From Candidatus Iainarchaeum sp. (GTDB lineage: Archaea > Iainarchaeota > Iainarchaeia > Iainarchaeales > 0-14-0-20-30-16), in the NCBI GenBank assembly GCA_028710695.1, contig JAQTTP010000003.1, positions 60,001-92,000 of the forward strand: a DNA stretch of 32,000 nucleotides. Reading direction: 5' to 3'. This document shows, in pieces, positions 9,008 through 31,438 of this stretch; position 1 is the first letter of the stretch; every line of letters starts with the position of its first letter. The position numbers and the translations under genes are program-made. The notes under the pieces were generated by a model. The model did not search any database. It had not been told where the DNA came from and worked only from the letters and a program-made list of their open reading frames with translations.

Positions 9008-9028
9008 CTTTCTTTTAATAAAAGAAAG
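9008..9028. repeat. Polypyrimidine/polypurine palindromic hairpin 6 nt upstream of tRNA-Arg
   Basis: ctttctttt (9008-9016), loop aat, aaaagaaag (9020-9028): a perfect 9-bp stem. Confidence 0.6.
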
Positions 9029-9034
9029 GGCAGT

Positions 9035-9108: not shown

Positions 9109-9113
9109 TTCCA

Positions 9114-9138
9114 AGCTTTTCTTTGATAAAGAAAAGCT
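9114..9138. repeat. Polypyrimidine/polypurine palindromic hairpin 5 nt downstream of tRNA-Arg (possible bidirectional terminator)
   Basis: agcttttcttt (9114-9124), loop gat, aaagaaaagct (9128-9138): a perfect 11-bp stem. Read on either strand it presents a T-rich arm. Confidence 0.6.
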
Positions 9139-9203
9139 CCGGTCCATCAAAAGAAACCCCTGCGGGCGCAAATTGGCTTTTTGCATTTTTTCTAAAAATA
9201 CCG

Positions 9204-9217
9204 GAGTCCCACCGAGG
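9204..9217 (+). repeat. Second copy of the 3' end of tRNA-Arg (direct repeat, att-like)
   Basis: gagtcccaccgagg at 9204-9217 is identical to 9092-9105 (T-loop end, T-stem 3' strand and acceptor 3' strand of the tRNA). The match continues as tc after a 1-nt insertion. This is GC-rich sequence in AT-rich surroundings. Confidence 0.7.
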
Positions 9218-9219
9218 AT

Positions 9220-16100: not shown

Positions 16101-17346
16101 TTCAATCATTTTGAAAATATATTCCGGAAATGAATCCGGGTTGTTGCCTGTGAATGTAACGTTAACATATATTCCAGAAGTACCTGCAAAGCCAATAAAC
16201 GTACCTTTGTCAACAGAAATAATGGATGGTGCAATGGCTTTATCTAAATGGTTCTGGGATACTAATATGAACTTAGATGATGCTACATCTGACACTTTGT
16301 TTGATGCACAAAAGAAGATATATTTCTTGGCAAACATAATGAAAGATGGATTTACAGAAGACTTCTTTAATGACTTTGTAAATTCATGTAATAGTGAATT
16401 CTTTGTGTGTCCAAGTGAAGTAAAAGATAGTTTTATGGCTCTTATGGAAGAAGGGCGTTTGAAAGTAGTTAATGTAGATGGCACAAACAAATTAAATGGC
16501 CCCGGAAAGTATGTTGTAAGAACTATAATTGATTATAAGAATACAGACCTAGAAATTAAAGATGCAAATATAATAATAATTTTAGAGAAAGTTGAGCCAC
16601 CAATACAAGATAATATTTTGTATTATATGCCTCTGGATGGTCCTATTGGAATAAGTGATTATAGTGTTGATAGACAAGGCTATGGTGTTGACTTCTCTGG
16701 AGCAACAATTGACCTTTTTAAGCTTGGAAATTTAGCAAAGAAATTGACAGTAAACACAACATCTAATCCAATAAATACTGTGAATGTAGAATCAAATTAT
16801 GATTTTGCTTCTGCTAACAAAATTGCAAGAGGCAGAGTTTTAGGAATAAATACTTTGGGCGACCAACAAGTGTTTGTGAACTTTGTTCCAATGAATCAAA
16901 CAAAGTTTAACTTTGAACTAACTCCAGAAACAGATAAAGATACAAAATTCTGTTATGAAGTAGAACTTGATGACCAGATAATGAAAGGTCCAGATTCCTT
17001 GCTGCCGTTCTTTGCAAAAGATCCTGAAGCAAAAGATTTCACAGGACAAATGATGGTAGATAACTACCCTAAATTTGCAGAGGCAGGAGTTTGTGGAGAT
17101 CAAGCTGGATTGAAGTATAGCTTAGAATCAGTAATGAGTTCTGATCCAATAGGTCTTTACACTTATGTGTATGCTTTGAATAACACAAATGTAAAAGTGA
17201 CCAATAGTAGTTATGACAATACAGAAAGTTTGTCTGGAAAAACATTAAGTAGTGTATTTGATGATATTGCTGCAGGAAGGCTGTGTATAAATTCCACAAG
17301 CCAGACAATGGATGTATTTTGGAATGAATATGCTCAACAAAATTAA
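10108..17346 (+). CDS. Giant (2412 aa) membrane-anchored surface protein, paralog 2: same N-terminal module, beta-sandwich repeats, central two-helix TM hairpin, conserved C-terminal module
   Basis: This is an uninterrupted ORF. The N-terminus MGLRDFYFGLEDKYYKMIDKLD...IDKVMPSMILFFILFVVIIVLIIWAVIPSYA aligns with paralogs 1 and 3. It has repeats such as VKLHVIDESESPIQGAKAFVQD...ETDENGDTQLPITEEGAYSFRVYKGYSEG. A hydrophobic pair lies at nt 14731-14889. C-terminal motifs are shared with paralogs 1 and 3. Confidence 0.9.
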   Translation: MGLRDFYFGLEDKYYKMIDKLDTIFPAHAIVDRIDKVMPSMILFFILFVVIIVLIIWAVIPSYAQINVSFFNDGLSLKEKIPFSMYIGDENYSFVSDGGSAIVKIPKSDLYRIKVDTSKYSIDKDYSFSDEIKVLLDKKKKNIPIQIYFKSGYSDVESASAIFDCDNISIPDSEASKETNNGYIEITVPEDCGILNISASAEGYNSKNDVCDSTSCVINFESATSVSDNGKTNIPTANIVVKIADNLGSKDGQVTIYDSSDLINPVETGYSLNGYYNSKALAVGGYKVAVNVGTYLPQTKTIVLTEAGMNVDFMVMKNTLGNVLLKVDEETEFSYKLKDLNNNILDSGNSDKEVAFLPVFEYGKYLIDLTPDSNEFGVISNEQVEFKEGTSEITLDLKEITSFNAVLVKLHVIDESESPIQGAKAFVQDLFSGFEVFSYNFPETDENGDTQLPITEEGAYSFRVYKGYSEGMSEQVTITFEPGTEMPEEELDVVIYLGNGSFNITVLDELDYVVPFAQIDFYTKGLTKKSGTKLTDNAGKLLFSLKAGTEKFFVASKEGYMPFYSEARFLTPANIWDINANLEPQKLKEDDEKARVEYLGVFDALGGEPTNFEVDKAVYLGYDIHLYTDVDEMNFEYTTGKETTTVEQDSLFIFDSSSSSQVDSMYEDLEKTIYTEDKGKILTAKWTTGLDSAKVEKGIYRIYVKVMVRNDSSVSLYEPLNIKWKLYLDEKLNSSEEKEYFLGSSLDCSDMFCAKTSLLDIENQIYVENIGNVNKNEQKYPLVIGKKYKTEFTLMNGITASDGEIENGYLKAHTATSSDTSFMAVENDVDKYNFYQFSNISLSGPNSESQYYGAAKTILVDKYNFTKFFANKTISGSFNLIPTYDNGNYINFWVIDSDKQVPVRGAPAFNYWFVPDAPHSLSIKLFPNTLLVPNKVQNLKVYVYDELESVVKDAKVVVLKKAPNDSVYKTVQGCNNLTTDYEGKVVCELPPFEPNTFIQVLAYKEGYKSYKHNDLLPDLKVVEEIISFNPAKLDITISYPKEKAVVADLTIANASAQDLIINNIDLQFDKYSENSKFLLNWEAMEAYFESEYKGKVIYGIEEDKGVNETILQNFFKVIANDTFDKSVYADKIGGIIKVTLDTSPGTVTLDIPFSIKFKLDSYPENAGECLKISMLEKDFYIEKATNTEIEMINTCLLDSEKLTPAIFDKLFLLLTLEDGSYSIVNYSLTIPDKVSKNVDIGVPALLLENLKTDVTKPDMTGFLGMTPKSVKGNQKIGIKLMGYVTTESGPAKLESNTISINVNTVELANCIGVYNDNGEKIDRIDFGVFSSIEYLATAESINNKVHGPSTEIEIKNECSGSLLYIRACKDNENNFSPGCGNENSDAKLSFSVEDFTKGIELAGGASQKVEIYRPSIPGAYALDLWVKTKDQWGYKKIYDVKTNVKTTTAFGYFSYNPFLPMFDLNTDITPMTNGDEFESDIMYLFNRDLWVSKMSDLETLEKIAECDTGGSGCWNSLDRLDLSSGLGDDGDSVDNSETARKAVFYSGVGVAGVGVIILIGVALCASSVPVAGWIIGGAAAIAAGTFAIISALAPDDFEQITEYHLFDMVGEDIALDAVIYSQTDKKTYNWLDGTSMDPVKLTSLFGERYYDLYYVNKEVAGSVGFAGGDHKKDLWFTVYCGTEYEPVVDAIVINDIKKEVCGWPEDEPFVVNGSDVEFRPDCSDAGFLDGFELHSHVYVPCVLKPKNWVYEQFKGVDYGLPNTGLARVKYTTKDLKPGYNYFDVDMNVIGLLDIDPKEVKFRVSLYNPLSEEEKILPLGDSCKNLSGEIIGYTGEKARPKLKFVWDWQSQGSVLSPYEDMNFCNTDNYCDSTQFMMNMFNRINTFNDEILDLSKSNDMDLPKTNPQPETLKPEYDYDPAKAESLGVKSVKLEFTNSNLLYLKVSKDVDVNVSKISVIVGGADGSSGDMAVSSQNPNVFTYTISDQPVEEYKDLDGKKYSIILKIYSGNESGLLPVNVTLTYIPEVPAKPINVPLSTEIMDGAMALSKWFWDTNMNLDDATSDTLFDAQKKIYFLANIMKDGFTEDFFNDFVNSCNSEFFVCPSEVKDSFMALMEEGRLKVVNVDGTNKLNGPGKYVVRTIIDYKNTDLEIKDANIIIILEKVEPPIQDNILYYMPLDGPIGISDYSVDRQGYGVDFSGATIDLFKLGNLAKKLTVNTTSNPINTVNVESNYDFASANKIARGRVLGINTLGDQQVFVNFVPMNQTKFNFELTPETDKDTKFCYEVELDDQIMKGPDSLLPFFAKDPEAKDFTGQMMVDNYPKFAEAGVCGDQAGLKYSLESVMSSDPIGLYTYVYALNNTNVKVTNSSYDNTESLSGKTLSSVFDDIAAGRLCINSTSQTMDVFWNEYAQQN

Positions 17347-17497
17347 TAAAAAAGTAAGTAGGTAAAGAACAGCATTAGTTAGGTTAAAAAAATGCTAAAA
17401 AAAGGTCAACGGTTAGTACAGAAAGGAGACAAAAAACACCTCTTAAGATGGTGTACAAAATTTGGCTCCTATAAGAATTATAATTATTGGTGATTGT

Positions 17498-20400
17498 ATG
17501 AGTTTTAGAGAGCTATATACGAAAATAGAAGATAAATATTATGCGATGTTGGATAAGATAAATCAAGTTATACCTATCCACAAGCTTACTGACCAAATTG
17601 ACAAGGTAATGCCCTCGATGATATTCTTTTCTGTATTCTTTTTAGTGATAATTGGACTTATTATTTGGCTAATAGTTGCTAGTGTTGGATCTTCAACAAT
17701 CACTTTTGAATTTTATTCTAATGGAACACTTGCATCCGGAGAATTTAATGTAACTTTCTCTTCCGAAGGTGGAGAACAAATTGCTCTTGTGAAGAATGGA
17801 ATTGCCTTTGGAAATTATGATATGGGGGATTTTGTAACTGTGAAAATAAAAGAGCCTTATACTTTTTCAAAAACTTATGAAATTAAAAGCGAATTAATGA
17901 AAATTGACTTGCCAGGATTAGACAAACTTGCTTTGAAGGAAGCAGAAAAAAAGAATAAAGAAATTTCTATTTATTTGTATGATGGCACATCTGGGTCTCT
18001 AGTTAAAGAAAAAGCGATTGTTAGCGCAAGTTGTGAGGATTTTAGTAAAGAAATAGAAGTAACTGGAAACACAAAACTTGCAATTCCTGATAATTGTTCT
18101 TATGTTGATTTGTTAGCAACTGCTGACGGATATTTACAATCTAAAAAAAGTTGTGATACCGCTTTGTGTAAAATATTTATGGACAAAAAAGGAACAACTA
18201 CTCCAACAACTGTTGTTCAATCAATTCCAAAAAATAAAGTTGTTGTGTATGTAAAAGATAATAAAGGAACTTCTCTGGAAGGGTTTGATGTAAAAATTAC
18301 TGGGGTTGAATCAATACAAGATGTTTTGAACCAAGCAAAAACAAATGCTTTTGGAAGTTACACTTTTGAAGATATTACTGTTGGAAATTATAAATTGTAT
18401 GTGTCTGATCCTTCTGGAACTTTGACTACTGTAAGCAAAGATTTAATTGTTGTATCTGGGCCTCCAGTTATTGCAGATATTACTATGGAAAAGCCGCCTT
18501 TGGGATATTTTAATGTAAAAGTGAATACTGAGAATACAGGTGGATTTGCATTAGCTACTTTGTATGTGAAAGATGTAAATGATAATTATCTTGGAACTGT
18601 GGACATAAATACTGGTGTAGAATACAAGATAGGTGTTTATGAAAAAGGAAAATATATTTTTAATGTAATTCCTGTAACTGGTTATGATGAAAATTATTCA
18701 ATTGTTACTGAAGAAAGAGAATACGATTTGCAAAGCGGAGATAAAAAAGTTGATTTAGTTTTGAAAGAATTAAAATATTATGAAAATACAAAAGTTAATT
18801 TGAAAGTTGTAAAAGAAAAAGATGATGGGTCTGAGGAACCATTGCCAAATATGAAAATAATAGTTGAAAATGACGAAGGCTGGCAAATAGAATTGCCTGC
18901 TGACAAAACAAAAACAGATGTAAATGGTTCTGTGAGTTTTATTTTGCCATCTGGAGTTTACATAGTTCATGCTTATAATTATTATTTTACTGGAGAAACA
19001 AATTTACAATTATTGGACACTCCTGGTGCAACAGAATTGCCTGAAACAGATGCAAAGATTGCTGTTCAGATTGGAAAAGCAAAAATAAAAGTTTCTGTTA
19101 AAGACGAAGATGGAAAGGATTTGACAGATGTGAAAGTAGATATCTATATGGATTCCAATTTTTTTGGACCAATGTTTATAAGTCAAGAAAAATACAAAGA
19201 GGTTCAGGTTGAGGCATATCATAGTTATTATGTAAAGGTAACAAAAGAAGGATATTTGAATTATTATAGTCCAGAGTTGGTTTTGAAGAAAGACCAATTA
19301 ATGGATGAGAAAGTAATTTTGTATAATAAATTAGAACACTTAAACTCAGATCCTGAAATGATTTATGTTGGGGCATATAAAGATCAAGAATTAAAAACAA
19401 AGCTTGATAAAATAGATCAAGAGAATGAGTTTTATTATGTGTTTGATTTAGTTGTTCCAGAATTTAGTGAAAAATTGTATGAAATTTCTGGGGTTAAAGT
19501 AACTGGTGTTGCAGGAAACAAAAATTTGCCAGTTTTAGAAAGCGATTTAGTTTTAAAGAACGTATTTGCGTCTGGAAAAACACATTTATTTAGTACAATA
19601 ACTGGAACTTCTTTAGCAGAACAAGGTGAAGATTTTACTTATACTGCAAAATCTTTTACAAGCGAGTTTAATGGGGGCTCTTATGTTGCAAGAATGGTTG
19701 TGCATTTGAGATCTACTGATATTCCTCAAATAGGGGATAAATTATTCTTTTATTATAAATTAGATATAGATACTAAACAAAATGGCTCTTTTAATTTGCC
19801 AATACCAACTGACGCAGAATATTATGAATTAATTAAGTTCTTGGGAAAACGAGAACTTTGTGAAAATGAAGTTGTTTGTGTTGATACTTACTTAGATGGA
19901 ATGGCAACAAGTAGTTTGCCTGGCGGAAGCGAAAATAAAGTGGAATTATATTCTGGAAAGCAGAATAATATTCTTGTAAATCTTACAAAGGGTGATGAAC
20001 TTCCAACTGAACTTGAAGCAAGTAAGTTTACAGTATTCAATTCTACAATTTCTTCTGTAGAGAACTTTAATTCTTTGAAAGACTTCTATGTTGATTTGGA
20101 AGATATGAGTTTAGTGCACGACAAAATAACATCTACAAAGCCAATAGAAATTGACTCACAAACAGCACCGGTATTTGTAAAAGAAGCATCAATAAATAAT
20201 TATAAAATTAATACTACTTTGAAGTTTGATTCAAAAATTGAATTGGTGGAACCAGAGAATTCAAAACTTTATTTTAATTTTGATACTACTAATGAAGTTG
20301 AGCAAGTATATGTTGATTTAGAAACAATGAACGATGACGAACCATTAAAGTTAGAAGGGCTGCCAGAAGGAGATCTTTTGATTCCTGGAATTGAAAACTC

Positions 20401-23400
20401 TTTTGATGTAATTGTGAAATCTGGAGAAGATAAGATTGGGGCTGCAATAATAAAAATATATTTCTTTGATGGAATGAATTGGTCTTTAGAAAATACTTTT
20501 ACTGCAGGAAATGATGGTGTTGCAAAAATTACTATAAAGCCACACACACAAGGTGAAGAAGTAAAAATATCTGCTGAAAAAGAAAGTTATTTGCCTTGTG
20601 CAAAGATTTTATTAGTAAGTACTGATTTGTTTGAAATAAACAAAAGCAAGAATGAAACAAAAATAGTTTATCCAAAAGATTTAAATCCAGTTGCAGGAAA
20701 ATTGGGAATAAAAAACAAAACAAATATTGATTTTGAAGTTTATAATGTGGAATTTGTGGGTTCTTCAAATTTGGGTTTATTGATGAATGTAGAAAAAATG
20801 GAAAACTACCTTAAAGATGCAAAACCATTGTTAATTCCAAATGAAGAAACAATAGGATTTAAAATGCATTATAATGATTTGCCAGTACAAACTTTGACAG
20901 ATTCAGTTGCTCTTGATGATGTTCATGCAATGTTATCTGTTAGGCCAAAAGGATCAGAAAGTGAAATTGTTTTGGATGTTCCAATAACTTTGGAAATAAC
21001 TTTTAATAATCAGCCTTTGGAAGAGAATTGTGTTTCTGTTGAATTTACAAAAGATTTAAGTAAACTATCTGGGGAAACAGAGTTTAGTGCTGTATTCCTG
21101 AACGGTGTTGCGCCAGAAACTTATTTGATAATAGAAAACTCTTGTACAATTGAATTGAACGAAGGCCAAGGAAGTGTTGCGGATTATGAATTTGCTGACT
21201 TTTTGTTAGATGCGTCATTTTCTAAGATGGCAAATAATATAATGGGCGGATTCACAATTAATATTGAAGGTGCAAGTGATAATACAAAAACAGAAAATTA
21301 TTCTTTGTTTAAAGTTGATACTGGCGAAGTAATAAAATTGCTTTCTCCAAAGAAAAAGAGCAATGACAAATATATTTACAAAATCACATTTGAAAAACTT
21401 GGAGATTATGAATTTGGAAAGAACGGAACAAATGTAGAATTTAAATTTATTCCAAAGTACCAAGGTGTTGGAAACCAAACGATCTCTTTTGGAGAGAAGA
21501 AACTTTCAATGAACGTTTCTGAAAAGAAGATATCTGATTGCTTATATTTCGGGTTGAATACAAATGTTAATACCCAATCTGTTGCTACCGACACTGAAGG
21601 AGTGGCTACTGAAGAAGGTTCTGAACAGCAAGTTATTATGCCAATTAGTATAGACGAACAACAATATTATTTGAAAGGTGGAAATGGAATATTAAGATTG
21701 GGTTATGATTATGTTGATGAGACTGTGGGCCCAGAATCTTTGAATGCGAATTTGACTTTGGATAACACAAGTAACTTGCAAATAACTAGGCCAGGTAATG
21801 ATTATGTTGTAAACTCCCTGCCGCTTTTAATTAAGAACACTTGTGGAATTGATTTGGAAATAAAATTGTGTAAAGAAGATGATGAATATTGTAGAATTCC
21901 TGATGTAGGATTTATGCAATTTGATACTTTATATGGTGTTGAAGGATTTGAGTTATATAATACTCCTTTAACTATTGGTGCGGATAAAGAAATACAATTC
22001 TCCTTATTGAGGCCGCAGGAATTCTCCGGTGCTGTTGTACTTCCTTTGTATGTAAAAAACACAACAGGAGAATATGGCTTGGCAAAAGAAGCAAAGGTAT
22101 CAGTTCAATCTTCATTGTTTAATCCATACTTTGTGTTAAATCCATTTGTTGAAGATGGAAACATGGACATTACTTTCTACAAGAATGAATATTATCCAGA
22201 TATGACTGGTTGGTCAGATCCAATAGAGAAACAGTTATTGACCAACGACACAGATTCAAGCTCATATCTGCGATTGATCCAAATAACTCCTGGTCCAATT
22301 TTTAATTATGATGGGGACGATGATTCTGGAAATATTTTAGATTCTTTTGAAGCACTGAACCCAAAGTCAATTGACTATACGGATGATAGTTCTGATGTTG
22401 ACCAAAGTCTTAGTGAAAAAGTTGTTGGGGTTGTAGGCGGTATGATTAGTGGCGGCGTAGATATATTGTACTATATAAAAGAAGTAGAATATAATCTTCC
22501 ACAATGGGCTATAATAAAAATAATGGCAAATAGATTCCATAAAGGGTCTTTGAGTGATTTAGATGATGATGTGGCCGCAACAGCAGAATATAGAATTTGG
22601 TCAGAAAGCTTGCCAATACAAAATATATTAAATAATAAACAGATTTTTGACGGTTTTAATAATGATTGGTGTGAGCTTGAAGATGATTCTTGCTTCTTTA
22701 ATTATGAAGGCCCAGTTCAAAAAATTGCAGATATTTTGCGTGAAACTGTCGGAACAAAGTACCCTTATTTTACATCAATAAGTGTTGCAAGGTTGGAAGG
22801 AGATTGTGGTTGGTCAAATGTTATTGCCTATGCACAAGGGTTTTGTCCACAGGGGTATGAACTTGCAAAAATAGAACTTTTTAGAAAAGATGGCGGAACT
22901 GTTGATGGCAGAGATAATACTTTCTCTCAAGTTACTGAAGGCAAGACAACAAAATACTTATATGGTGGCTCTGTAAACTTTGAAGATAAATATATTAATG
23001 AAGAGTCAGATACTGGCTATCAGATGATGACTATTTGTAGGCTTCCTAGATCAGAGTTTGGAGAAGTAGATCGTGCTGTTGGGGGAACAATGAAATATAG
23101 TTCTTTTGGCAGTGGGTCAATATTTGATTCCTCAGGAATAGAAAATATTGTAAAAAGTAAGATCCAAGCAACAGACATATTTAATTGCACGGACTGCACT
23201 TCTGAATTGAGAGAATTTTTATTTGATGTATATGATGCAGAGGCAGCAGATATGGATTGTGAAATAACACCGCCAGGTTATTTTGATGCGGGTGATAATG
23301 ATGAATATGAGATATACCAGAATAATTCATCTGGATGCCCCGGATTTGACTACTCAAAAATAAACTTATTAAATGAGTTATACCAAGGCAAGGAAAATGA

Positions 23401-24874
23401 TGTAGACAATTATAAGGCAAGGACTGCGGCAGTAGTAACTAGTATAGTAACAAACTCAGGGAAAACGACATCTGGAGAACTTGCTTATGCAGCAAATATG
23501 GCTTTTGCAGGTAGTGATACTTTCTTTGGTTATATTGATGATGCATATGGTATTAATTTTGATGGGCTAATAATAGAACTTTGTAAAGATGGTTCAAAGA
23601 CAAAAAATAATGGTACTTGTAGTCATGCAACTCAATTACGTGCTAGCTTTGGACCGTATAATTATAATTCCATCTCTATAACTGCTGCTGAATTTGATGG
23701 CTTAAATTCAAACATAAGACTATATCTTGAGCCAAAGACAATGAAGAAAGACTTTGCATTCTATAAGAAAGTAAATTCATGCCCATATGGTGGGTATACT
23801 GGCCCAGAAGTAAAGCCAACAATAAATTATACTTGGGCAGAAAGTGCAATAAAAAAAGATTTCTGTGTTGTTGAGGGTGAAGAGAATTATGCAGATGTAA
23901 ATGCTTGTGATTTAGTTCAATTCTCTAAAGTGATTTCAAAACAATTTTCAGATGATATGGAACAAAAGCATTTTACTGTAAAACTGATGTATGACAACTA
24001 TTCTGAAAGTGCAATAAATTCTTTAATAGAATGGTCTTTCTTTGAACACATAAAAGATTTAAGAATCCTGAATTATGATGGAAGCCCGGTGGGAGAAATT
24101 GGGCCTGGAATTTACAATGTAGATTTAATACGTGATGAAAATGTATTGGATGTGTACTTATCATATCTGACAAGTTATGGGCCAGATCATATATTCTATA
24201 GGATGCCTGTAGACAATGTTGGTACTGGGGCAATCCCTGGAATTGGAACTTCAATGAACTATCCAATAAATTATGATGGCTTTGGAAGCTTTAGTCAGAT
24301 TAAAGATGACGTTTCTACCTTAAAAGAATATTCTGTTTCAAACCACGATTTGAAAACAATAAATACAACTCAAAAAGGAACTGTGTTTGCAGGATACTTT
24401 AATGATGGCTTGATATATTGGAATAACATGGATGTATATCTGCTGACTGCACACTTGGGAACTGACGAGAATAAAGAAATTTTGCTAACTGCTCCAGAAT
24501 ATGATACGGAAATCTATGAAGTTCTAAAATCTGGCTGGATTTATGAAGATGGTGAAGACTACTACTATGCTGAAAATGCGGGATTTGGGTTTGGAGTGGT
24601 TGACACAGATAATGGCAAGAAGTTAAAGATAAGTAATGCAAGCGGATACAATAGAACTGTAAAGAAAATATTATTCTATCCACAAGGAAGCGCGTTGGAT
24701 TTGCCAGAACAGGATGATGTAACTCTTACACAGCTTGATGTTGAGCCAATATACAGTATAACAGACATATTCAAAGGATTGGAAAATGAAAACATTTGTT
24801 ATAGGGCTTTGGAAGACGGAAGTGAATATTATTATAACCCTTTGAAATTATTAGATATAATACAAACGCAATAA
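17498..24874 (+). CDS. Giant (about 2458 aa) membrane-anchored surface protein, paralog 3
   Basis: The ORF is open from 17462 (TTG). The ATG at 17498 is preferred because it gives MSFRELYTKIEDKYYAMLDKIN...IDKVMPSMIFF, colinear with the other two N-termini, and is preceded by the SD ggtgat (17489-17494). It has beta-sandwich repeats (e.g. KIKVSVKDEDGKDLTDVKVDIYMD...YYVKVTKEGYLN) and a shared C-terminal motif at about 23765-23950. Confidence 0.88.
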   Translation: MSFRELYTKIEDKYYAMLDKINQVIPIHKLTDQIDKVMPSMIFFSVFFLVIIGLIIWLIVASVGSSTITFEFYSNGTLASGEFNVTFSSEGGEQIALVKNGIAFGNYDMGDFVTVKIKEPYTFSKTYEIKSELMKIDLPGLDKLALKEAEKKNKEISIYLYDGTSGSLVKEKAIVSASCEDFSKEIEVTGNTKLAIPDNCSYVDLLATADGYLQSKKSCDTALCKIFMDKKGTTTPTTVVQSIPKNKVVVYVKDNKGTSLEGFDVKITGVESIQDVLNQAKTNAFGSYTFEDITVGNYKLYVSDPSGTLTTVSKDLIVVSGPPVIADITMEKPPLGYFNVKVNTENTGGFALATLYVKDVNDNYLGTVDINTGVEYKIGVYEKGKYIFNVIPVTGYDENYSIVTEEREYDLQSGDKKVDLVLKELKYYENTKVNLKVVKEKDDGSEEPLPNMKIIVENDEGWQIELPADKTKTDVNGSVSFILPSGVYIVHAYNYYFTGETNLQLLDTPGATELPETDAKIAVQIGKAKIKVSVKDEDGKDLTDVKVDIYMDSNFFGPMFISQEKYKEVQVEAYHSYYVKVTKEGYLNYYSPELVLKKDQLMDEKVILYNKLEHLNSDPEMIYVGAYKDQELKTKLDKIDQENEFYYVFDLVVPEFSEKLYEISGVKVTGVAGNKNLPVLESDLVLKNVFASGKTHLFSTITGTSLAEQGEDFTYTAKSFTSEFNGGSYVARMVVHLRSTDIPQIGDKLFFYYKLDIDTKQNGSFNLPIPTDAEYYELIKFLGKRELCENEVVCVDTYLDGMATSSLPGGSENKVELYSGKQNNILVNLTKGDELPTELEASKFTVFNSTISSVENFNSLKDFYVDLEDMSLVHDKITSTKPIEIDSQTAPVFVKEASINNYKINTTLKFDSKIELVEPENSKLYFNFDTTNEVEQVYVDLETMNDDEPLKLEGLPEGDLLIPGIENSFDVIVKSGEDKIGAAIIKIYFFDGMNWSLENTFTAGNDGVAKITIKPHTQGEEVKISAEKESYLPCAKILLVSTDLFEINKSKNETKIVYPKDLNPVAGKLGIKNKTNIDFEVYNVEFVGSSNLGLLMNVEKMENYLKDAKPLLIPNEETIGFKMHYNDLPVQTLTDSVALDDVHAMLSVRPKGSESEIVLDVPITLEITFNNQPLEENCVSVEFTKDLSKLSGETEFSAVFLNGVAPETYLIIENSCTIELNEGQGSVADYEFADFLLDASFSKMANNIMGGFTINIEGASDNTKTENYSLFKVDTGEVIKLLSPKKKSNDKYIYKITFEKLGDYEFGKNGTNVEFKFIPKYQGVGNQTISFGEKKLSMNVSEKKISDCLYFGLNTNVNTQSVATDTEGVATEEGSEQQVIMPISIDEQQYYLKGGNGILRLGYDYVDETVGPESLNANLTLDNTSNLQITRPGNDYVVNSLPLLIKNTCGIDLEIKLCKEDDEYCRIPDVGFMQFDTLYGVEGFELYNTPLTIGADKEIQFSLLRPQEFSGAVVLPLYVKNTTGEYGLAKEAKVSVQSSLFNPYFVLNPFVEDGNMDITFYKNEYYPDMTGWSDPIEKQLLTNDTDSSSYLRLIQITPGPIFNYDGDDDSGNILDSFEALNPKSIDYTDDSSDVDQSLSEKVVGVVGGMISGGVDILYYIKEVEYNLPQWAIIKIMANRFHKGSLSDLDDDVAATAEYRIWSESLPIQNILNNKQIFDGFNNDWCELEDDSCFFNYEGPVQKIADILRETVGTKYPYFTSISVARLEGDCGWSNVIAYAQGFCPQGYELAKIELFRKDGGTVDGRDNTFSQVTEGKTTKYLYGGSVNFEDKYINEESDTGYQMMTICRLPRSEFGEVDRAVGGTMKYSSFGSGSIFDSSGIENIVKSKIQATDIFNCTDCTSELREFLFDVYDAEAADMDCEITPPGYFDAGDNDEYEIYQNNSSGCPGFDYSKINLLNELYQGKENDVDNYKARTAAVVTSIVTNSGKTTSGELAYAANMAFAGSDTFFGYIDDAYGINFDGLIIELCKDGSKTKNNGTCSHATQLRASFGPYNYNSISITAAEFDGLNSNIRLYLEPKTMKKDFAFYKKVNSCPYGGYTGPEVKPTINYTWAESAIKKDFCVVEGEENYADVNACDLVQFSKVISKQFSDDMEQKHFTVKLMYDNYSESAINSLIEWSFFEHIKDLRILNYDGSPVGEIGPGIYNVDLIRDENVLDVYLSYLTSYGPDHIFYRMPVDNVGTGAIPGIGTSMNYPINYDGFGSFSQIKDDVSTLKEYSVSNHDLKTINTTQKGTVFAGYFNDGLIYWNNMDVYLLTAHLGTDENKEILLTAPEYDTEIYEVLKSGWIYEDGEDYYYAENAGFGFGVVDTDNGKKLKISNASGYNRTVKKILFYPQGSALDLPEQDDVTLTQLDVEPIYSITDIFKGLENENICYRALEDGSEYYYNPLKLLDIIQTQ

Positions 24875-24907
24875 GTAACAGGATAATGAAAAAATTGGTG
24901 TTTAAGA

Positions 24908-25327
24908 ATGGATATAACAATGTTGATAGGGCTAGGAGAGTTCTTTGGGGACTTTGTCTTCATAATAAAGATCTTTGCCTTTATTGCCATTCTTGGGTTT
25001 GTTAACAGATATATCCAGAGCAAGTTAATAAAAATAATAATGGTCGTGTTTATGGGTTATTTTATCCTTATTGCAAACTGGGCTGTATTTGGAACTATGT
25101 TTGTGATATATACTTTATTGGGAATTGGTGTTGCAGGAATACTAACAGATTTCTTCTTTGCTGGTCAGAATATTATTGGTGAAGGTGAACAAGAAAGGCA
25201 GATGGCCCAAGAAAAAGAGCGGGAAGAAATGGAGAGAAGAAGAATGCTTGAGGATGCACGGCCAGTATCTAGTAGTGCGAGTTTGCATAAAAGGCCCCCA
25301 ATTCCACCTGCACTTATGAGAAGGTAG
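24908..25327 (+). CDS. Small polytopic membrane protein (about 3 TM) with charged E/R/K-rich and Pro-rich C-terminal tail
   Basis: The ORF lies 33 nt after the giant gene 3 stop with no T-run between. An SD ggtg lies at 24897-24900. Hydrophobic segments are FVFIIKIFAFIAILGFV, IIMVVFMGYFILIANWAVF and MFVIYTLLGIGVAGIL. The tail is EGEQERQMAQEKEREEMERRRMLED...KRPPIPPALMRR. Confidence 0.7.
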   Translation: MDITMLIGLGEFFGDFVFIIKIFAFIAILGFVNRYIQSKLIKIIMVVFMGYFILIANWAVFGTMFVIYTLLGIGVAGILTDFFFAGQNIIGEGEQERQMAQEKEREEMERRRMLEDARPVSSSASLHKRPPIPPALMRR

Positions 25328-25331
25328 AACT

Positions 25332-25691
25332 ATGGCGATTAAATTAAATGAAAAGGGTGCAATAATAATTGCAATTGGCATTGCGTTTGTAGTAATAATA
25401 CTGCTGCCAATTGTGTTTATGCAAATCTTTTCAATTTCAAAGCCTCTATTTCAGATTATAATTGCCTTTGTTATAATGGGGTATATACGAAATGTTGGAA
25501 TAGAAGGAATACCATTTTGGACTTTGTCTGCTATTCTAATATACTTTTTAGCTTGGAAATATGTTGAGATTGCTTCAAGCTTTTATGTTTTGATGTTATT
25601 AATGGGTTTAGGATTTACTTCATCTTTGATCTGGGGTTCAATATTCTTTACTGGGCTTTTGAAAAATAGAAAAATGGCGAAGCAAGGATAA
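25332..25691 (+). CDS. Small polytopic membrane protein (about 4 TM)
   Basis: It starts 4 nt after the preceding stop, with aggt upstream. Hydrophobic segments are AIIIAIGIAFVVIILLPIVF, IIIAFVIMGYI, FWTLSAILIYFLAW and FYVLMLLMGLGFTSSLIWGSIFFTGLL. Confidence 0.7.
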   Translation: MAIKLNEKGAIIIAIGIAFVVIILLPIVFMQIFSISKPLFQIIIAFVIMGYIRNVGIEGIPFWTLSAILIYFLAWKYVEIASSFYVLMLLMGLGFTSSLIWGSIFFTGLLKNRKMAKQG

Positions 25692-25725
25692 CTATAAAAA
25701 CAAAATTGTGTTATATAGTGATAAT

Positions 25726-25971
25726 ATGAATTGGATTCTGTTAGTTGCTGATGTAGGAACATTTAAAGGGGATGTATGGTTAGCCCTGTTCCTTTACGTA
25801 AGTATAATGGTTTTTGCATGGGCAAAAGGAAAGCTTGGAAGCCCAGAAGTAGCTATTTTGTATACAATCATAATGATGTTTTTGGTGTTTTATCAGCACG
25901 ATGTTCTAATTTGGCTTGCCTTGGGACTATACCTTTACCAGACCTATGGTAAGGAGATATTCAAGGGCTGA
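25726..25971 (+). CDS. Small polytopic membrane protein (about 3 TM)
   Basis: The track ORF starts at GTG 25708. The ATG at 25726 is preferred because the SD-like gtgat (25718-25722) precedes it. Hydrophobic segments are VWLALFLYVSIMVFAWA, VAILYTIIMMFLVFY and VLIWLALGLYLY. Confidence 0.65.
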   Translation: MNWILLVADVGTFKGDVWLALFLYVSIMVFAWAKGKLGSPEVAILYTIIMMFLVFYQHDVLIWLALGLYLYQTYGKEIFKG

Positions 25972-25976
25972 TCTGA

Positions 25977-26315
25977 ATGGAAATTTTCTCCTTTATAATC
26001 TCGATGTTTGTAATGATGGTTGCATCGCAATATGGGTTATATTGGCTTATGATAATAGTTGCGGGTGTTGCTGCTTTCATGTCTAAGGAGAAGAAAGTAC
26101 TGATAATTTTTGTGATTTATATTGCAATCCTGTATTTCATAAAGGGCACTGCCTATGAATCTTATGGAATTTATGTTGCTGCAGTAATCATTGTGGTTTA
26201 TTTAATCTTGAATAAAGGGGATTCTGGTGGTGAAGAAGAAGCACTGGGCGGAATGGGAGATCAATATGGTGATCTTCTGAAGGGCCTTGGCGGCGGTGGC
26301 GGCGGGGGAATGTAA
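25977..26315 (+). CDS. Small polytopic membrane protein (about 4 TM) with acidic, poly-Gly C-terminal tail
   Basis: It starts 5 nt after the preceding stop, with tgatc upstream. Hydrophobic segments are FSFIISMFVMMVA, LYWLMIIVAGVAAFM, VLIIFVIYIAILYFI and IYVAAVIIVVYLIL. The tail is DSGGEEEALGGMGDQYGDLLKGLGGGGGGGM. Confidence 0.7.
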   Translation: MEIFSFIISMFVMMVASQYGLYWLMIIVAGVAAFMSKEKKVLIIFVIYIAILYFIKGTAYESYGIYVAAVIIVVYLILNKGDSGGEEEALGGMGDQYGDLLKGLGGGGGGGM

Positions 26316-26422
26316 ATTCCTGAAGGAATTGTGAAGGAAAACCCCCCAAAAAGACCAAGAAACCTTTATAAAGCTATGTTATATTGATTATATATATTAT
26401 ATATAGAGCGATGTGAAGTATC

Positions 26423-26767
26423 ATGAAGTTATTAATTGCTTTGTTATTAGGAATATTGGTATTTGGATTGATGAACAACTCATCCCTGTTAAGTATAGGT
26501 CTAATTTTGTTAGGAGTTTACCTATTGTTTAACATAGTACAGGGTGCAAAGAGCAATGCAAGTACTTTGAAGAAGTTTGTTGATGTTAAGGAAATTAACT
26601 TCGACAATCTAAAATGCCCTGAGGGTATTGTGGACAATATGTTGAAGGATGCCGGAAAAGTTACAAAGAATATGCTTAACGGAAACAAGACTGAAAACAT
26701 AGGAAAGGCATTGCATAACGGAACTTATAATGCTTTACAAGACGTTGGTGCTCCTTTCAAGAACTAG
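26423..26767 (+). CDS. Small membrane protein (two N-terminal hydrophobic helices + about 70-aa soluble domain), unknown function
   Basis: The N-terminus is MKLLIALLLGILVFGLMNNSSLLSIGLILLGVYLLFNIV, followed by a polar domain. It is separated from the upstream operon by 107 nt containing A/T boxes (tttataaa at 26365-26372 and tatatatattatatata further on), so it probably has its own promoter. Confidence 0.6.
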   Translation: MKLLIALLLGILVFGLMNNSSLLSIGLILLGVYLLFNIVQGAKSNASTLKKFVDVKEINFDNLKCPEGIVDNMLKDAGKVTKNMLNGNKTENIGKALHNGTYNALQDVGAPFKN

Positions 26768-26782
26768 TACAACGCCTAAACC

Positions 26783-26803
26783 TTTTTTTTATTGGTTTTT
26801 TTT
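26783..26803 (+). terminator. Double oligo-T terminator
   Basis: T8 (26783-26790) and T8 (26796-26803) lie 16 nt after the stop at 26767. Confidence 0.5.
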
Positions 26804-26858
26804 CAAAATCTAATCTTTAATGGCAAAAATTATAAGCCCTACTTGATAATATGTAAAT

Positions 26859-27524
26859 ATGCAAGTTAAAAGCCTTATAAAAAAGTTTGACGAACTACAA
26901 CTTGTGTACGGAGACCAAAACTTAGATGCGATTTGTGGTGCGGGGCAAATTCAAAACCCTCAACTCTGTTTAGTGTTTATGAATCCAACTGGAAGGAATG
27001 TATCTTCAAGCAAAAGCTGGAAAGGGCTAAAAGCCCCCTGGATTGGCACAAAGAATGTTTGGAAGATGTTTTCTCAACTTGGTTTTTTTGACTCTGCTTT
27101 TTTTAAGGAAATTGAAAATAAAAGTCCAGATGATTGGGATTATGAATTCGCTAACAAAGTTTATTCTAAAGTTAGAGATAGTTCTATCTATATTACTAAT
27201 TTATCAAAGGCAACACAGGCAGATGCAAGGCACCTTAAGAATGAGGTCTTTAGAGATTATTTAGAGGTATTTTTTGAAGAAATAAGTACTGTCAAGCCGC
27301 AAATTATAATTGCCTTTGGTAATCAAGTAAGTTCGGTTTTACTTGATAAAACTATTAAAGTATCGGATTATCGTAAAAAATGTGAAAACCTTGAAATTGA
27401 TGGAAATGCAATCAAAGTTTTTCCTGTATATTATCCTGTTGGGCAAGGTCAGAGAAACATAGAAAAAGCAAAAGAAGATATTAGCTGGATTCTTAAAACG
27501 CAACTTGCTGGCTTAAAGCTTTAA
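26859..27524 (+). CDS. Uracil-DNA glycosylase superfamily protein (non-canonical motifs)
   Basis: The overall layout matches the UDG fold. Motif-1 position: LCLVFMNPTGRN (compare GINPG/GMNPG of MUG/SMUG-type and GEAPG of family 4). There is a central IIIAFGNQVSSVLL strand and a late motif VYYPVGQGQRN at the HPS-type position. Family assignment is uncertain. Confidence 0.55.
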   Translation: MQVKSLIKKFDELQLVYGDQNLDAICGAGQIQNPQLCLVFMNPTGRNVSSSKSWKGLKAPWIGTKNVWKMFSQLGFFDSAFFKEIENKSPDDWDYEFANKVYSKVRDSSIYITNLSKATQADARHLKNEVFRDYLEVFFEEISTVKPQIIIAFGNQVSSVLLDKTIKVSDYRKKCENLEIDGNAIKVFPVYYPVGQGQRNIEKAKEDISWILKTQLAGLKL

Positions 27525-28046
27525 CTTGTATATCCCAAAGGTTAGATCCCTTACTTTTAAGGCCTTTTTTCTTGAAAAACCTTCTTTTGTAAGTAGGCTT
27601 GTTGATGCAGGGTTATAATGTGGTTTCTCTACAATTACTGCATAGATTGCTTTGTATCCTTCTGCCTTCGCATCTGAAATAAGCTGTTTTGTTAGTTCTG
27701 AACCTAAGTCTTGATCTTGTTTATGCTTTGCAACTCCTAAAAGGTCCCAGTAAATGAAGTCCTTTTCTGTCTCTTTGGAGAAATAGATTATGATTGGATC
27801 TCTGTCTTTGTCTAATTTTCGCAATGCTTTTTGCTCATAAGCCATATTGAAGCCAATAACTTTCTTGCGGTCTAGGACAACATAGCAAAAATTAGAATTC
27901 TTTATTCTGTTTGAGATTGTGCCTATCTTTGGGATATTATAATCTACAAATCCGGTATCTTTTTTTGAGTTGGCAGGAATAGTTAATTCTTTTATTATTT
28001 TTTGGATATCTTTGGCGTCTTTTGCCTTTGCTTTTATTATCTCCAT
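27513..28046 (-). CDS. GNAT-family N-acetyltransferase-like protein
   Basis: MEIIKAKAKDAKDIQKI..., VVLDRKKVIGF, WDLLGVAKHKQDQDLGSELTKQLISDAKAEGYKAIYAVIV...NPASTSLLTKEGF follows the GNAT beta4-alpha3 (Q/RxxGxG/A-like QDLGSE) and beta5-alpha4 pattern. Confidence 0.55.
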   Translation of the reverse strand: MEIIKAKAKDAKDIQKIIKELTIPANSKKDTGFVDYNIPKIGTISNRIKNSNFCYVVLDRKKVIGFNMAYEQKALRKLDKDRDPIIIYFSKETEKDFIYWDLLGVAKHKQDQDLGSELTKQLISDAKAEGYKAIYAVIVEKPHYNPASTSLLTKEGFSRKKALKVRDLTFGIYKLKL

Positions 28047-28787: not shown

Positions 28788-29984
28788 ATGCGTGTGGCTT
28801 TTATTTCAGATACTCATCTAGGGTTTTCTAAGCATAAAGTTGAACTTGACTCCTATATCTATGCAGAACAAGCCTTAAAGATCGCTAAAGAAAAAGCGGA
28901 TTTGATTGTTTTGCCTGGAGACATATTTGATAGCTCAAGCCCTGGCGAAGACTGTTTATCTAAGGCGTTTTCTATTTTGCAAATATTTAAGGGGTTTGAA
29001 TCTAAAGCAAAAATGATTGGGGTTGTAGATAGAAGGCAACATAATAGTCAAATTACTTTGGGTATGCCAATAGTTGCTATTCCTGGTACTCACGAATACA
29101 AACTGAAAGAAGATGGTCCTTTAGAAGTATTAGAAAATGCGGGATATCTTGTTTGCTTGCATGCGGGCTATTGTAAAATACAGAAAGGGGAAGAAATAGT
29201 TAATATTTTTGGAATGAAAGGTGTTCCTGAGCAGGTTGCAAGAGATGCTCTGAAAAAACTTTCTTTTATTCCGCAAGATGGAAAGAATATTCTTGTTTTG
29301 CATCAGTCTTTTAAGGAACTTCTGCCGTTTAATGACGAGATGGTGGCTACTTTAGAATACAAAGATCTGCCGTCTGGATTTGACTTGTATGTTAATGGGC
29401 ATATCCATCAGCATAAAACTTTTGAATTGGATTCAGGAGTATTTCTTATCCCTGGTTCTACAATAAACACCCAGGTTAGAAAGTCGGAAATTAAACATAG
29501 GAAAGGGTTTGTTGTTTATGACACAGAATCAAAGAATGTGGAATTCGTGGAAATTCCTATTCAGAGGCAGTATAAGTATTTAGAATTGGATGTTTCTAAT
29601 GGGCTTGAAGATCAGGAAATTATATTTGACGGATTAAAACCGGTGTCTTATTCTTTATTTGGAAAAGAAGTTGTTCTTGAGCCATATGTGAAAGTTAAGA
29701 TTGTTGGGGAAATTGATGAACATAAGAAAAACATTTTGCAGACCATAAAGAAAAGAGATGGGTTTATTATTGACGTTGAGAAGGATCTTTCTGTAATTGA
29801 GCAGAAAATAAAAGATATTGACCTAAAAGCTATAAGAGATGGGGCAATTACAACTGCAGAGAATGTGTTCTTTGACAATTTGTATAGCTCAGGGTTTAAG
29901 AAGTCATTTGACTTAAAACAGGTTTTTGAATATCTTAAAGAAGAAAAGCCAGATAAGGTAATGGAACACCTGGAGAAAGATTAG
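28788..29984 (+). CDS. mre11: Mre11/SbcD-like DNA repair metallophosphoesterase
   Basis: Calcineurin-like phosphoesterase motifs appear in order: ISDTHLG (I), LPGDIFD (II), IPGTHE (III, N to T variant), VLHQ (IV), VNGHIHQH (V). An SD gtgat lies upstream. The 398-aa size fits archaeal Mre11. Confidence 0.65.
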   Translation: MRVAFISDTHLGFSKHKVELDSYIYAEQALKIAKEKADLIVLPGDIFDSSSPGEDCLSKAFSILQIFKGFESKAKMIGVVDRRQHNSQITLGMPIVAIPGTHEYKLKEDGPLEVLENAGYLVCLHAGYCKIQKGEEIVNIFGMKGVPEQVARDALKKLSFIPQDGKNILVLHQSFKELLPFNDEMVATLEYKDLPSGFDLYVNGHIHQHKTFELDSGVFLIPGSTINTQVRKSEIKHRKGFVVYDTESKNVEFVEIPIQRQYKYLELDVSNGLEDQEIIFDGLKPVSYSLFGKEVVLEPYVKVKIVGEIDEHKKNILQTIKKRDGFIIDVEKDLSVIEQKIKDIDLKAIRDGAITTAENVFFDNLYSSGFKKSFDLKQVFEYLKEEKPDKVMEHLEKD

Positions 29985-31438
29985 TTCTCACAAGCCCCAC
30001 ACAACATATAATTTAAATGTGATTTTACCTTTTCTTTTTGTTCTTGTGGAGTGAAATATAAGGCGGCTTTACAAAAGTCGCTGTTACTTATTTTCTTACT
30101 TGTATATTTGTATTTTTCTAATACTAATTTAAGTGTGTTTATTGTATTCTCTTTGCCAATATTAAAATAGAGGTATTCCAGAATGAGGTATCTGCCTGCA
30201 TAACTTGATTTTATATAGTCTCCAGTTAAGTCACAAACTGGCTTATTAAAGTCAATGGTCTTTAAGTTGTTGTAAAGTCCGTCTTTATAATCATCTAATA
30301 CTGTGGAATATGCTGTGTGCCCAATTCCTATTGAATCAAAGTCGTTTTTGAAGTCTGTAATTAATATAAGCGGCAGTACACTAGATGGCGCCTCAGTTAA
30401 CCATTCTTGACACATCCCATTAAAAAAATAAGAATGAACTAATTCATGGCCTAACAGCCAGGGATGATTTACTCCGGACTCTCCCCCAATAACTATTGAT
30501 CCTGGGCTTCCCAGGGCTGCGTTTCCAAATGATTGGACAATTATGTCCTTGCAGGGGAATTGAACAATATAACTTTGAATCTGTGGAATATACTTTTCCA
30601 ATATTATTTTGCCTTGGTTTGCAATCTCTAGTCGTTCCGTAGTTGGATCTGGCACGAAAATTGTAATTCCTACTCCTTCGCTTGAAGAAGTGATTTCGTC
30701 TACTTCTATGTTTAAATCAGTATAATTCCACTTTTTTACATATTCAGGGGTAAGACAATTAAACGGATCTTCCTTTAGTTCCATAATTCCATAAACTTCT
30801 TGTAAAGCATTGCCATAATTTATCTCTTCATGTGCTTGTTCATTACAATAGTGGTTATCGCAAATTAAGCCAGACAAACAATCTGAGTCTTGATTGCAAG
30901 CTCCATATGTTAGTTCACATGATTTGTTATTGCAGTATTCCCAATTGTCACAATCATCATCATATACACATTTATTTTCTTCTAGTTTGCAAGAGTTATT
31001 GATGCAGATGTAAGGCAGATTACAACTTGGGTTATTGTATTCACAGCCATCTTTTAAGAAACAATTTCCGCTAGAACAATAATGCTGATTGTCACAATAT
31101 TTGTTTTTATATCCTTCAAAGTTTTCACAACATTGATAAGGGCAATCAAGGATAATTGGGGTGGTTGGCTTTGTACCTGTGGTTGTTGTGTTTGTGTCGG
31201 GAGTTGTTTTTGTTTGGATATTTGTAATTGTTTGTTCTGTGTTTATATCTTTTTTACATTGCCAATATTCACTACACTTAAACCCTTCTTGGCAGCCTTT
31301 GTCTAAATATTGGGAATCATCATAGCAACATTCAAAAGGGCAGGCTTTCTTTTGATCTGTAATATTGTCCGTAATACAGCCAGATAGGGAAAGCACAATT
31401 ATTGAAAGTATAAGTAAAGTAAGCAAGTATTTTGTCAT
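29981..31438 (-). CDS. Secreted/lipid-anchored Cys-rich zinc metalloprotease (HExxH...E gluzincin-like)
   Basis: The signal peptide has a lipobox-like end, MTKYLLTLLILSIIVLSLSGC. Two CP(F/Y)(E/Q)CC...C modules are separated by a Thr-rich linker (TKTTPDTNTTTTGTKPTTP), followed by DxDC-type Cys repeats. The C-terminal domain carries LLGHELVHSYFFNGMCQEWLTEA (an HExxH with a WLxE glutamate downstream, as in M1-like gluzincins). Confidence 0.65.
   Translation of the reverse strand: MTKYLLTLLILSIIVLSLSGCITDNITDQKKACPFECCYDDSQYLDKGCQEGFKCSEYWQCKKDINTEQTITNIQTKTTPDTNTTTTGTKPTTPIILDCPYQCCENFEGYKNKYCDNQHYCSSGNCFLKDGCEYNNPSCNLPYICINNSCKLEENKCVYDDDCDNWEYCNNKSCELTYGACNQDSDCLSGLICDNHYCNEQAHEEINYGNALQEVYGIMELKEDPFNCLTPEYVKKWNYTDLNIEVDEITSSSEGVGITIFVPDPTTERLEIANQGKIILEKYIPQIQSYIVQFPCKDIIVQSFGNAALGSPGSIVIGGESGVNHPWLLGHELVHSYFFNGMCQEWLTEAPSSVLPLILITDFKNDFDSIGIGHTAYSTVLDDYKDGLYNNLKTIDFNKPVCDLTGDYIKSSYAGRYLILEYLYFNIGKENTINTLKLVLEKYKYTSKKISNSDFCKAALYFTPQEQKEKVKSHLNYMLCGACEN

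Follow-up and report, generated by a model that had tools for sequence, protein, structure and literature searches.

A five-gene cassette of small membrane proteins linked to giant surface-protein genes in Iainarchaeota

We analysed a stretch of 32,000 nucleotides (nt) of DNA from Candidatus Iainarchaeum sp. (contig JAQTTP010000003.1, positions 60,001 to 92,000), referred to here as the window. This archaeal DNA has a G+C content of about 33% and carries three plus-strand genes for giant proteins, G1, G2 and G3, followed by a cassette of five small genes, s1 to s5, that encode membrane proteins. We found that the five families are new, as is their arrangement, and that the cassette stands behind a giant gene in nearly all of the lineages that could be judged. 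Comparative genomics gives good support to the link with the giants, which may be functional as well. We tentatively suggest that s1 to s5 form a lineage-specific hetero-oligomeric membrane platform for the biogenesis or anchoring of the giants, a reading of the sequences that we regard as quite possible rather than probable.

Layout and conservation of the cassette

The main features of the window are as follows (aa, amino acids; ORF, open reading frame).

158–7969, plus strand: giant gene 1 (G1), 2603 aa, with its own terminator
10108–17346, plus strand: giant gene 2 (G2), 2412 aa, a surface protein with an N-terminal anchor, of the ancestral G1/G2 type
17498–24874, plus strand: giant gene 3 (G3), 2458 aa counted from the ATG at 17498 (the mechanical ORF starts at TTG 17462)
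24908–25327, plus strand: s1, 139 aa
25332–25691, plus strand: s2, 119 aa
25726–25971, plus strand: s3, 81 aa counted from its ATG (the mechanical ORF starts at GTG 25708)
25977–26315, plus strand: s4, 112 aa
26423–26767, plus strand: s5, 114 aa, outside the coordinates of the original prediction
26783–26803, plus strand: two runs of eight T, the first oligo-T past giant gene 2 and an archaeal-type terminator signal

The original prediction, made from the letters of the window, had described s1 to s4 as four tightly packed genes behind G3. We confirmed these ORFs and found that the gaps from G3 to s4 are exactly 33, 4, 34 and 5 nt; s5 follows after a further 107 nt, and G2 and G3 are separated by 151 nt. 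No run of five or more T was found in any intergenic gap between the stop of G2 (17346) and 26767, and a scan of positions 16500–28000 for hairpin terminators gave none on the plus strand. The earlier statement that the gaps hold no terminator was thus borne out, as was its counterpart that T-runs do follow G1 (T6 and T7, at 7987–8000). The two T8 runs at 26783–26803 are the likely 3′ end of the unit, and most other lineages likewise have T-runs after s5. A unit of 10108–26315 had been proposed; no oligo-T separates G2, G3 and the small genes, but this end is too early, since s5 is included and carries the unit to 26767. Each small gene had also been assigned a Shine-Dalgarno fragment of GGTGATC. 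Pieces of it are present upstream, but all four are only partial (GGTG for s1, AGGT for s2, GTGAT for s3 and CTGATC for s4). Judged from this layout, s1 to s5 appear to share a transcription unit with G3, and probably with G2 too.

The arrangement is not restricted to the window (lineages and loci are designated by L numbers). Local searches with hidden Markov models (HMMs) detected s1 to s4, in order, straight after a giant in L013 and L020, two distant genomes. Metagenomes scanned with a concatenated alignment gave 53 loci, on contigs derived from groundwater and sediment samples (L074, for instance, from Hainich groundwater), and all 53 showed the order s1-s2-s3-s4 at 25–45% identity to the window. 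Each of the four proteins has same-order homologues down to about 25–30% identity in 53 metagenomic and 3 genomic lineages. When lineages were clustered by s2 at 85% identity or more, 38 clusters resulted, with G+C fractions from 0.30 to 0.53, and the order of s1 to s4 was invariant across them. An s5-type gene lies −4 to about 100 nt past s4 in nearly all lineages, and single linkage joins 31 such proteins, the window protein among them, into one family. L020 and L112 carry four tandem s5-like genes (L020:18549–20031, equal to L112:11218–12700; 113, 114, 118 and 152 aa), each with two transmembrane (TM) helices and a charged tail, at least three of which resemble one another (E 5e-8 to 2e-6); elsewhere s5 is a single gene. 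In the window all five family profiles find their match, in the expected order, and the cassette is collinear behind an N-anchored giant of the ~2,200–2,640 aa class that ends 33 nt upstream.

We then consider the sequence upstream of the cassette. Seven of the 38 clusters had too little of it to judge, which left 31 informative clusters, and 28 of these have a giant or its truncated C-terminus either directly upstream (at 0–94 nt, in some cases with an overlap) or separated from s1 by one small gene:

13 clusters: complete giant (2,227–2,627 aa) whose end lies −19 to 73 nt upstream of s1
4 clusters: complete giant, with one small gene between giant and s1
11 clusters: ORF on the same strand, truncated at the end of the contig, with significant similarity to giant C-termini (E 1e-16 to 1e-304)
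3 clusters (L065, L079, L084/85): no giant in the 1.2–5 kb upstream

The test of phylogenomic co-occurrence put forward with the original prediction is therefore strongly positive. The cassette-linked giants span 2,200–2,640 aa, and in 24 lineage clusters giant and cassette are on the same strand with a spacing of 0–94 nt or an overlap. The cassette is always placed after the last giant of an array: no giant (at least 900 aa) was found downstream of it, where the only long ORFs are of 771–890 aa and encode family-B DNA polymerase (PolB) where tested.

Members of the window's own genus provide a further comparison. Giants adjacent to the cassette in distant lineages resemble G1 and G2 over their full length, with G1 the closest of the window giants, and resemble G3 only over its first ~600–800 residues. 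G3 is thus a paralogue confined to the genus that came to lie between the ancestral giant and the cassette. In this genus the flanks have been replaced (by UDG, GNAT, RpiA and Mre11-like genes) and the locus has gained a new giant paralogue, with the block of giant and s1 to s5 intact. Tight or overlapping same-strand spacing, the lack of a terminator signal within the unit of the window and survival of the replacement of the flanks set the giant–cassette link apart from background synteny.

The five small proteins and their relatives

Hydropathy gave three TM helices and a charged tail for s1, four helices for s2, three for s3, and three to four with a Gly-rich tail for s4. Together with the ordered conservation of their homologues, this upholds the view that the small genes encode genuine polytopic membrane proteins. 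The s1 protein consists of a three-TM core, in which the loop between TM1 and TM2 has only about 9 residues, and a charged tail of ~55 aa; in an alignment of 43 sequences D15, K21, F61-G62, G74 and D81 are invariant or nearly so, and the predicted topology is N-out, C-in. The s2 protein, predicted to be N-in, C-in, has G9, G59, Y71 and K76 as invariant or near-invariant residues. From 26 diverse sequences AlphaFold2 modelled s2 as a confident four-helix membrane bundle (predicted local distance difference test, pLDDT, 94.3; predicted TM-score, pTM, 0.73) with helices at 7–32, 36–54, 60–76 and 78–118. The diverse alignment was needed for this, as 7 close sequences gave a poor model (pLDDT 69). 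The most conserved cassette member is s3, with the motif WAKxxLGSxKLA...TFGK. In s4 the C-terminal tail is acidic and Gly/Met-rich (...DLLKGLGG...; family pattern ...LLxGLGG), and s5 has an N-terminal two-TM hairpin followed by a Lys-rich soluble domain of ~70 aa, with the conserved pattern E-x-x-KA-x-x-x-P-x-G ... NF...LFK. By the positive-inside rule the long tails of s1, s4 and s5 would all be cytoplasmic.

A faint mutual resemblance among the small proteins had been proposed. We compared deep family alignments profile against profile with hhalign, which gave the following probabilities:

s1 and s2: 98.2%, E 4.6e-14, 77 columns
s1 and s3: 93.3%, E 2.8e-7, 71 columns
s2 and s3: 45%
s4 and s5: 77%, E 2e-5
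each of the remaining six pairs: below 4%

The six low pairs serve as a control against an artefact of membrane composition. The resemblance is thus upheld, but the pair of motifs originally quoted for it is in the wrong register, since residues 41–58 of s1 align with 59–77 of s2. Judged by these profiles, s1, s2 (TM2–TM4) and s3 share one three-TM core and are paralogues; s1 is the founding member of the group and s3 is related to the N-terminal part of s1. The s4 protein is unrelated to s1 to s3. It may be related to s5, perhaps through a common hairpin.

Relatives outside this setting are scarce. Searches of Pfam, NCBIfam, PHROGs and PADLOC assigned no family to any of s1 to s5, and a Pfam scan of the 43 s1 homologues taken singly assigned none either. 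TMEM208_SND2 was considered for s1 and rejected, as it matched only 1 of the 43 homologues (E 0.054, 13.8 bits against a cut-off of 22.9 bits). Profiles of s1, s2 and s5 had no significant match among PDB sequences, Foldseek found no PDB match for the confident s2 model (best E 3.9, TM-score 0.30), and exact-sequence look-ups of s2 and s4 had no match. Word-indexed searches with single proteins reach genus-level relatives only (6 matches at 67–93% identity for s2, 5 at 74–96% for s3), and the contigs of these close relatives repeat the order giant-141-114-81-106-114 aa. When the s2 profile was run with HMMER against all of 1.84 billion representative proteins, only 20 were matched at E ≤ 1e-3, all of 84–121 aa and none fused to another domain. 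No relatives of the cassette were found among 2.9 million viral contigs, which indicates that it is not viral. The literature on giant or large surface proteins of Iainarchaeota and DPANN archaea contained no description of the cassette. The claim that no system of this composition has been described therefore agrees with family databases, PDB sequences and literature alike.

Candidate functions and comparison with known systems

A membrane complex that is constant and evolves slowly, encoded behind the last giant of an array whose exposed products evolve fast, agrees best with a platform that the giants share for their biogenesis or anchoring. In three lineage pairs the identity of s1 to s4 against that of the adjacent giant was 56–81% vs 42%, 39–52% vs 39% and 52–65% vs 42%. 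The paralogy of s1, s2 and s3 fits a hetero-oligomer. Under the platform reading, s1 to s5 would be subunits of one integral-membrane complex exclusive to Iainarchaeota (DPANN archaea) and built of two duplicated modules, the three-TM core of s1, s2 and s3 and possibly the hairpin of s4 and s5. The cassette would be transcribed with the last giant gene of the array, and its tight spacing and overlaps would provide coupled, stoichiometric synthesis. The giant would be a signal-anchored protein with an ectodomain of more than 2,000 aa, and the long tails of the small proteins would face the cytoplasm. This constant membrane base would help to insert, assemble or hold the fast-evolving giants, and would serve every giant of the cell. 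That the cassette is co-transcribed, that its proteins form a complex, how they lie in the membrane and that they act as a platform are what we infer from these data.

A more far-reaching version, which strikes us as rather unlikely, is that the five proteins constitute an archaea-specific machine that inserts, assembles or anchors surface proteins of more than 2,000 residues through their terminal modules, independently of known secretion, sortase and S-layer systems. Such a machine would have arisen by duplication of a three-TM unit plus a two-TM hairpin, and would recognise the cytoplasmic N-terminal module (N-module) of the giants and/or their C-terminal V-C...FWWNP module, described below.

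We also considered that the cassette encodes an autonomous complex, such as a small transporter or an envelope or lipid factor, and that its adjacency to giants reflects inherited gene order or shared regulation. We regard this as doubtful. Several observations speak for it, and some of them also weigh against the platform. In L065, L079 and L084/85 the cassette is retained with no giant next to it, and L084 also has no giant within 9.5 kb downstream of the cassette. Two further points weigh against the platform alone. Many giants at other loci have no cassette behind them, as would be expected if each genome had a single cassette. TATA-like A/T elements lie within the 151-nt gap before G3 and the 107-nt gap before s5, and such elements before G3, s3 and s5 could be internal promoters. 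In some lineages foreign genes stand between giant and s1; they encode a PIN-domain protein (present in a variant of one cluster), an Asp-protease-like protein and three proteins without a family, and one is on the minus strand. These unrelated inserts indicate that co-transcription is not obligatory:

L102:796–1233, between giant and s1
L103:1324–1761, between giant and s1
L080:9242–9682, between giant and s1
L066:9271–9930, between giant and s1
L083:9241–9642, between giant and s1
L088:9277–9759, minus strand, between giant and s1

Wider synteny bears on the same question. Downstream of the cassette, distant lineages share s5, a minus-strand gene of 160–225 aa, a protein of ~500 aa and, at 3–5 kb, PolB (L064–L112, 0.4–6 kb past s4; for example L097:11887–12486 on the minus strand, then 12684–14189 and 14740–17151 on the plus strand). 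The ~500-aa protein is highly conserved, has no Pfam family and was found at 23 loci. The PolB synteny holds in the giant-less L084 and is absent from the window's genus. Since this wider order is shared, also in L084, the adjacency of giant and cassette may partly be inherited rather than selected. Finally, one clade keeps the cassette with giants that lack the canonical N-module. These giants have 19–57 residues before the TM helix and no EDKYY...IDKV motif, and retain a G1-like ectodomain:

L068:2398–9966, giant without N-module
L070:2724–9956, giant without N-module
L088:1660–8919, giant without N-module
L097:2693–9979, giant without N-module
L081:2934–9911, giant without N-module (L081 only in part)

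The same clade weakens the proposal that the cassette docks the conserved N-module: such docking cannot be its sole function. An autonomous complex, for its part, is harder to reconcile with the same-strand, tight or overlapping spacing in 24 clusters, the absence of oligo-T between giant and cassette in the window and a link that held in the window's genus when both flanks were replaced. In addition, the family is restricted to the giant-bearing taxon and gives no signal of a transporter family.

With respect to transporters, adjacent paralogues of ~110–120 aa with four TM helices that are expected to form hetero-oligomers recall the paired small multidrug resistance (SMR) proteins, such as flippases of the ArnE/ArnF type. 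Unlike these, s1 and s3 have three helices, and there are five different subunits, not two. Multi_Drug_Res and EamA models had no match at E ≤ 1 for s1 to s5 (Pfam, NCBIfam) or for the 43 s1 homologues. The Mrp/Mnh families (MnhB, Oxidored_q2, MNHE, MrpF_PhaF, PhaG_MnhG) gave no match, and no locus has a polytopic antiporter-like neighbour of 500–900 aa. These and the following likenesses to known systems are functional analogies, none of which rests on homology.

A third possibility is an ion-conducting or energy-coupling module that powers or regulates the giant and would control its extension, retention or release; the SiiA/SiiB proton channel found with SiiE would be the functional analogue. 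SiiA and SiiB are inner-membrane accessory proteins encoded in the operon of the giant adhesin SiiE on Salmonella SPI-4, which requires them for its function; they are MotAB/ExbBD homologues and act with type 1 secretion. The likeness lies in small membrane proteins that share an operon with an immunoglobulin (Ig)-rich surface protein of several thousand residues and have conserved acidic residues in or near TM helices. Consistent with this, invariant charged residues lie at TM edges (D15, K21 and D81 of s1, K76 of s2, D16 of s3), the composition from paralogues would be hetero-oligomeric, and the operon linkage to the giant speaks for such a module as it does for the platform. We nevertheless consider it improbable. 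No MotA/ExbB/TolQ or MotB-like match was found at E ≤ 1; in the comparison with MotAB/ExbBD/TolQR stators there was likewise no MotA_ExbB or MotB/ExbD match and no single-pass subunit, and the Asp residues of s1 are at helix ends. The s2 model had no PDB counterpart in the Foldseek search, and the charged residues appear to lie at the membrane boundaries, not mid-helix. Further differences from SiiA/SiiB are that the cassette lacks ABC and membrane fusion protein (MFP) genes, that its five subunits belong to two unrelated new families, that the giant carries its own N-terminal anchor, and that archaea have a single membrane.

Systems dedicated to large surface proteins offer partial parallels to a platform. 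Asp4 and Asp5 are small membrane proteins of the accessory Sec system for serine-rich repeat adhesins and are thought to aid export of a single class of substrate; the hallmarks of that system are the SecA2 and SecY2 paralogues together with glycosyltransferases. Like them, s1 to s5 are small membrane proteins encoded beside very large surface proteins with an unusual conserved N-terminus. Unlike accessory Sec, the loci examined have no SecA2, SecY2 or glycosyltransferase within 10 kb of the cassette, and there is no sequence similarity. More generally, no SecY- or SecA-sized homologue was found within 10 kb on either side, where the annotated neighbours include RpiA, an Mre11-like phosphoesterase, PolB and PIN. 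In Sulfolobales the S-layer protein SlaA is anchored by SlaB, a single-pass stalk with a long extracellular coiled coil. Here too an archaeal operon joins a large surface protein with a membrane-embedded partner, but s1 to s5 are polytopic, have hardly any mass outside the cell and carry tails predicted to be cytoplasmic, and the giants are themselves membrane-anchored. An insertase of the Oxa1/YidC/DUF106/TMEM208 type, with its three-TM core and a cytoplasmic coiled coil between TM1 and TM2, was not recognised among the cassette proteins: the sub-threshold TMEM208_SND2 match was the only one, and the TM1–TM2 loop of s1 has only ~9 residues. With regard to archaeosortase and PGF-CTERM systems, the C-terminus of the giants is a soluble V-C...FWWNP module that has no TM helix at its end, and no archaeosortase-like match (~300 aa, polytopic) was found among the cassette genes. 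Nor did comparison with phage holins and defence effectors give a PHROGs match or a relative on a viral contig; PADLOC returned only a 13-bit KwaA match, for s5.

Immunity against membrane-active glycine-zipper segments of the giants, by analogy with pore-forming bacteriocins, is most improbable: the cassette resembles colicin and bacteriocin immunity proteins in size, in its three to four TM helices and in its position downstream of a large exported and potentially membrane-active protein, most giants having a central Gly/Ala-rich hydrophobic segment, but immunity genes stand one-to-one with their toxin and co-diversify with it, whereas the cassette is fixed at 4+1 genes with one, two or three giants and is more conserved than they are, the giants of L066, L070, L090, L096 and L112 have no such segment at the threshold used, and no bacteriocin-immunity or defence family was matched.

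The giants, their surroundings and the significance of the cassette

G1, G2 and G3 share a common build, with an N-module of ~40 aa, one TM helix and Ig-like/CarboxypepD_reg domains. Searches with phmmer using G1 and G3 found nothing significant, and G3 is 42% identical to its orthologue in L001. A scan for the N-module, with one genome per species, gave 51 loci, almost all in metagenome-assembled genomes of Candidatus Iainarchaeum/Diapherotrites. Contigs with N-module giants in L017, L019 and L028 are filed in bacterial bins (Falkowbacteria, Chloroflexota) and are probably mis-binned archaeal DNA.

Two further elements of the giants were observed. The first is a C-terminal module, V-C-[VL]...x(8-12)...[FY][FWY][WY]-N-[PE], located 10–45 residues before the stop. 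It also occurs in giants of L013, L016, L027 and L066–L111 and is kept even by the otherwise genus-specific G3; the strict pattern is present in 41 of 78 distinct long-ORF ends, and others have xWN variants. The second is the central Gly/Ala-rich, glycine-zipper-like hydrophobic segment at aa ~1450–1780 of most but not all giants, which sits where the paralogues do not align; the cassette-adjacent giants without it are those named above. In the window these elements are located as follows.

7870–7969, plus strand: C-terminal module of G1, FWWNP
17250–17346, plus strand: C-terminal module of G2, VFWNE
24780–24874, plus strand: C-terminal module of G3, YYYNP
~5085–5145, plus strand: central segment of G1 (aa ~1644)
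14745–14880, plus strand: central segment of G2 (aa ~1547–1592)
22420–22480, plus strand: central segment of G3 (aa ~1642)

Positions 1–80 hold the 3′ end of an upstream plus-strand gene (…NEYKRGEIKNAKSCIYTLLKVVDIFR*) that lacks the C-terminal motif of the giants and so provides no evidence for a fourth giant. The original prediction had counted this fragment to equate four small genes with four giants. That equation fails, as L020 and L112 have one giant and L013 two, each with the same four genes.

The interval between G1 and G2 (8083–9945) contains an ScpA-like gene, a tRNA-Arg(TCT) gene at 9034–9109 and a minus-strand gene of 241 aa with a weak HEPN-like match. The ScpA-like protein has 209 aa, with an SMC_ScpA match at residues 25–98 and a sub-threshold Rad21/Rec8-like C-terminus (17.7 against a cut-off of 22.7 bits). 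On the minus strand at 29981–31438 lies a gene for a Cys-rich protein of 485 aa with a lipoprotein-like N-terminus (…LSLSGC) and an HELVH motif of the HExxH type; no Pfam family was above threshold. This protein and the UDG, GNAT, RpiA and Mre11-like neighbours are conserved within the genus only. Rfam identified three tRNAs and nothing else.

At another locus, L052:8301–9350, a 349-aa protein with ~10 TM helices is encoded 13 nt behind another N-module giant. From its sequence (GRIPN…, AGDSKLF) it may be a prepilin/preflagellin peptidase. This protein and a 418-aa membrane protein that follows a giant in L057 were considered as fused cassettes and rejected, since neither is matched by the cassette HMMs.

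Giant surface proteins, the presumed mediators of contact with other cells, occupy much of the very small genomes of DPANN archaea. Our analysis adds five conserved families of small putative partner proteins, found in practically all lineages with this giant family, their profiles, a defined operon and the prediction of a hetero-oligomer with cytoplasmic tails. If the link should prove merely positional, s1 to s5 would still be five new families of membrane proteins that mark one archaeal phylum.

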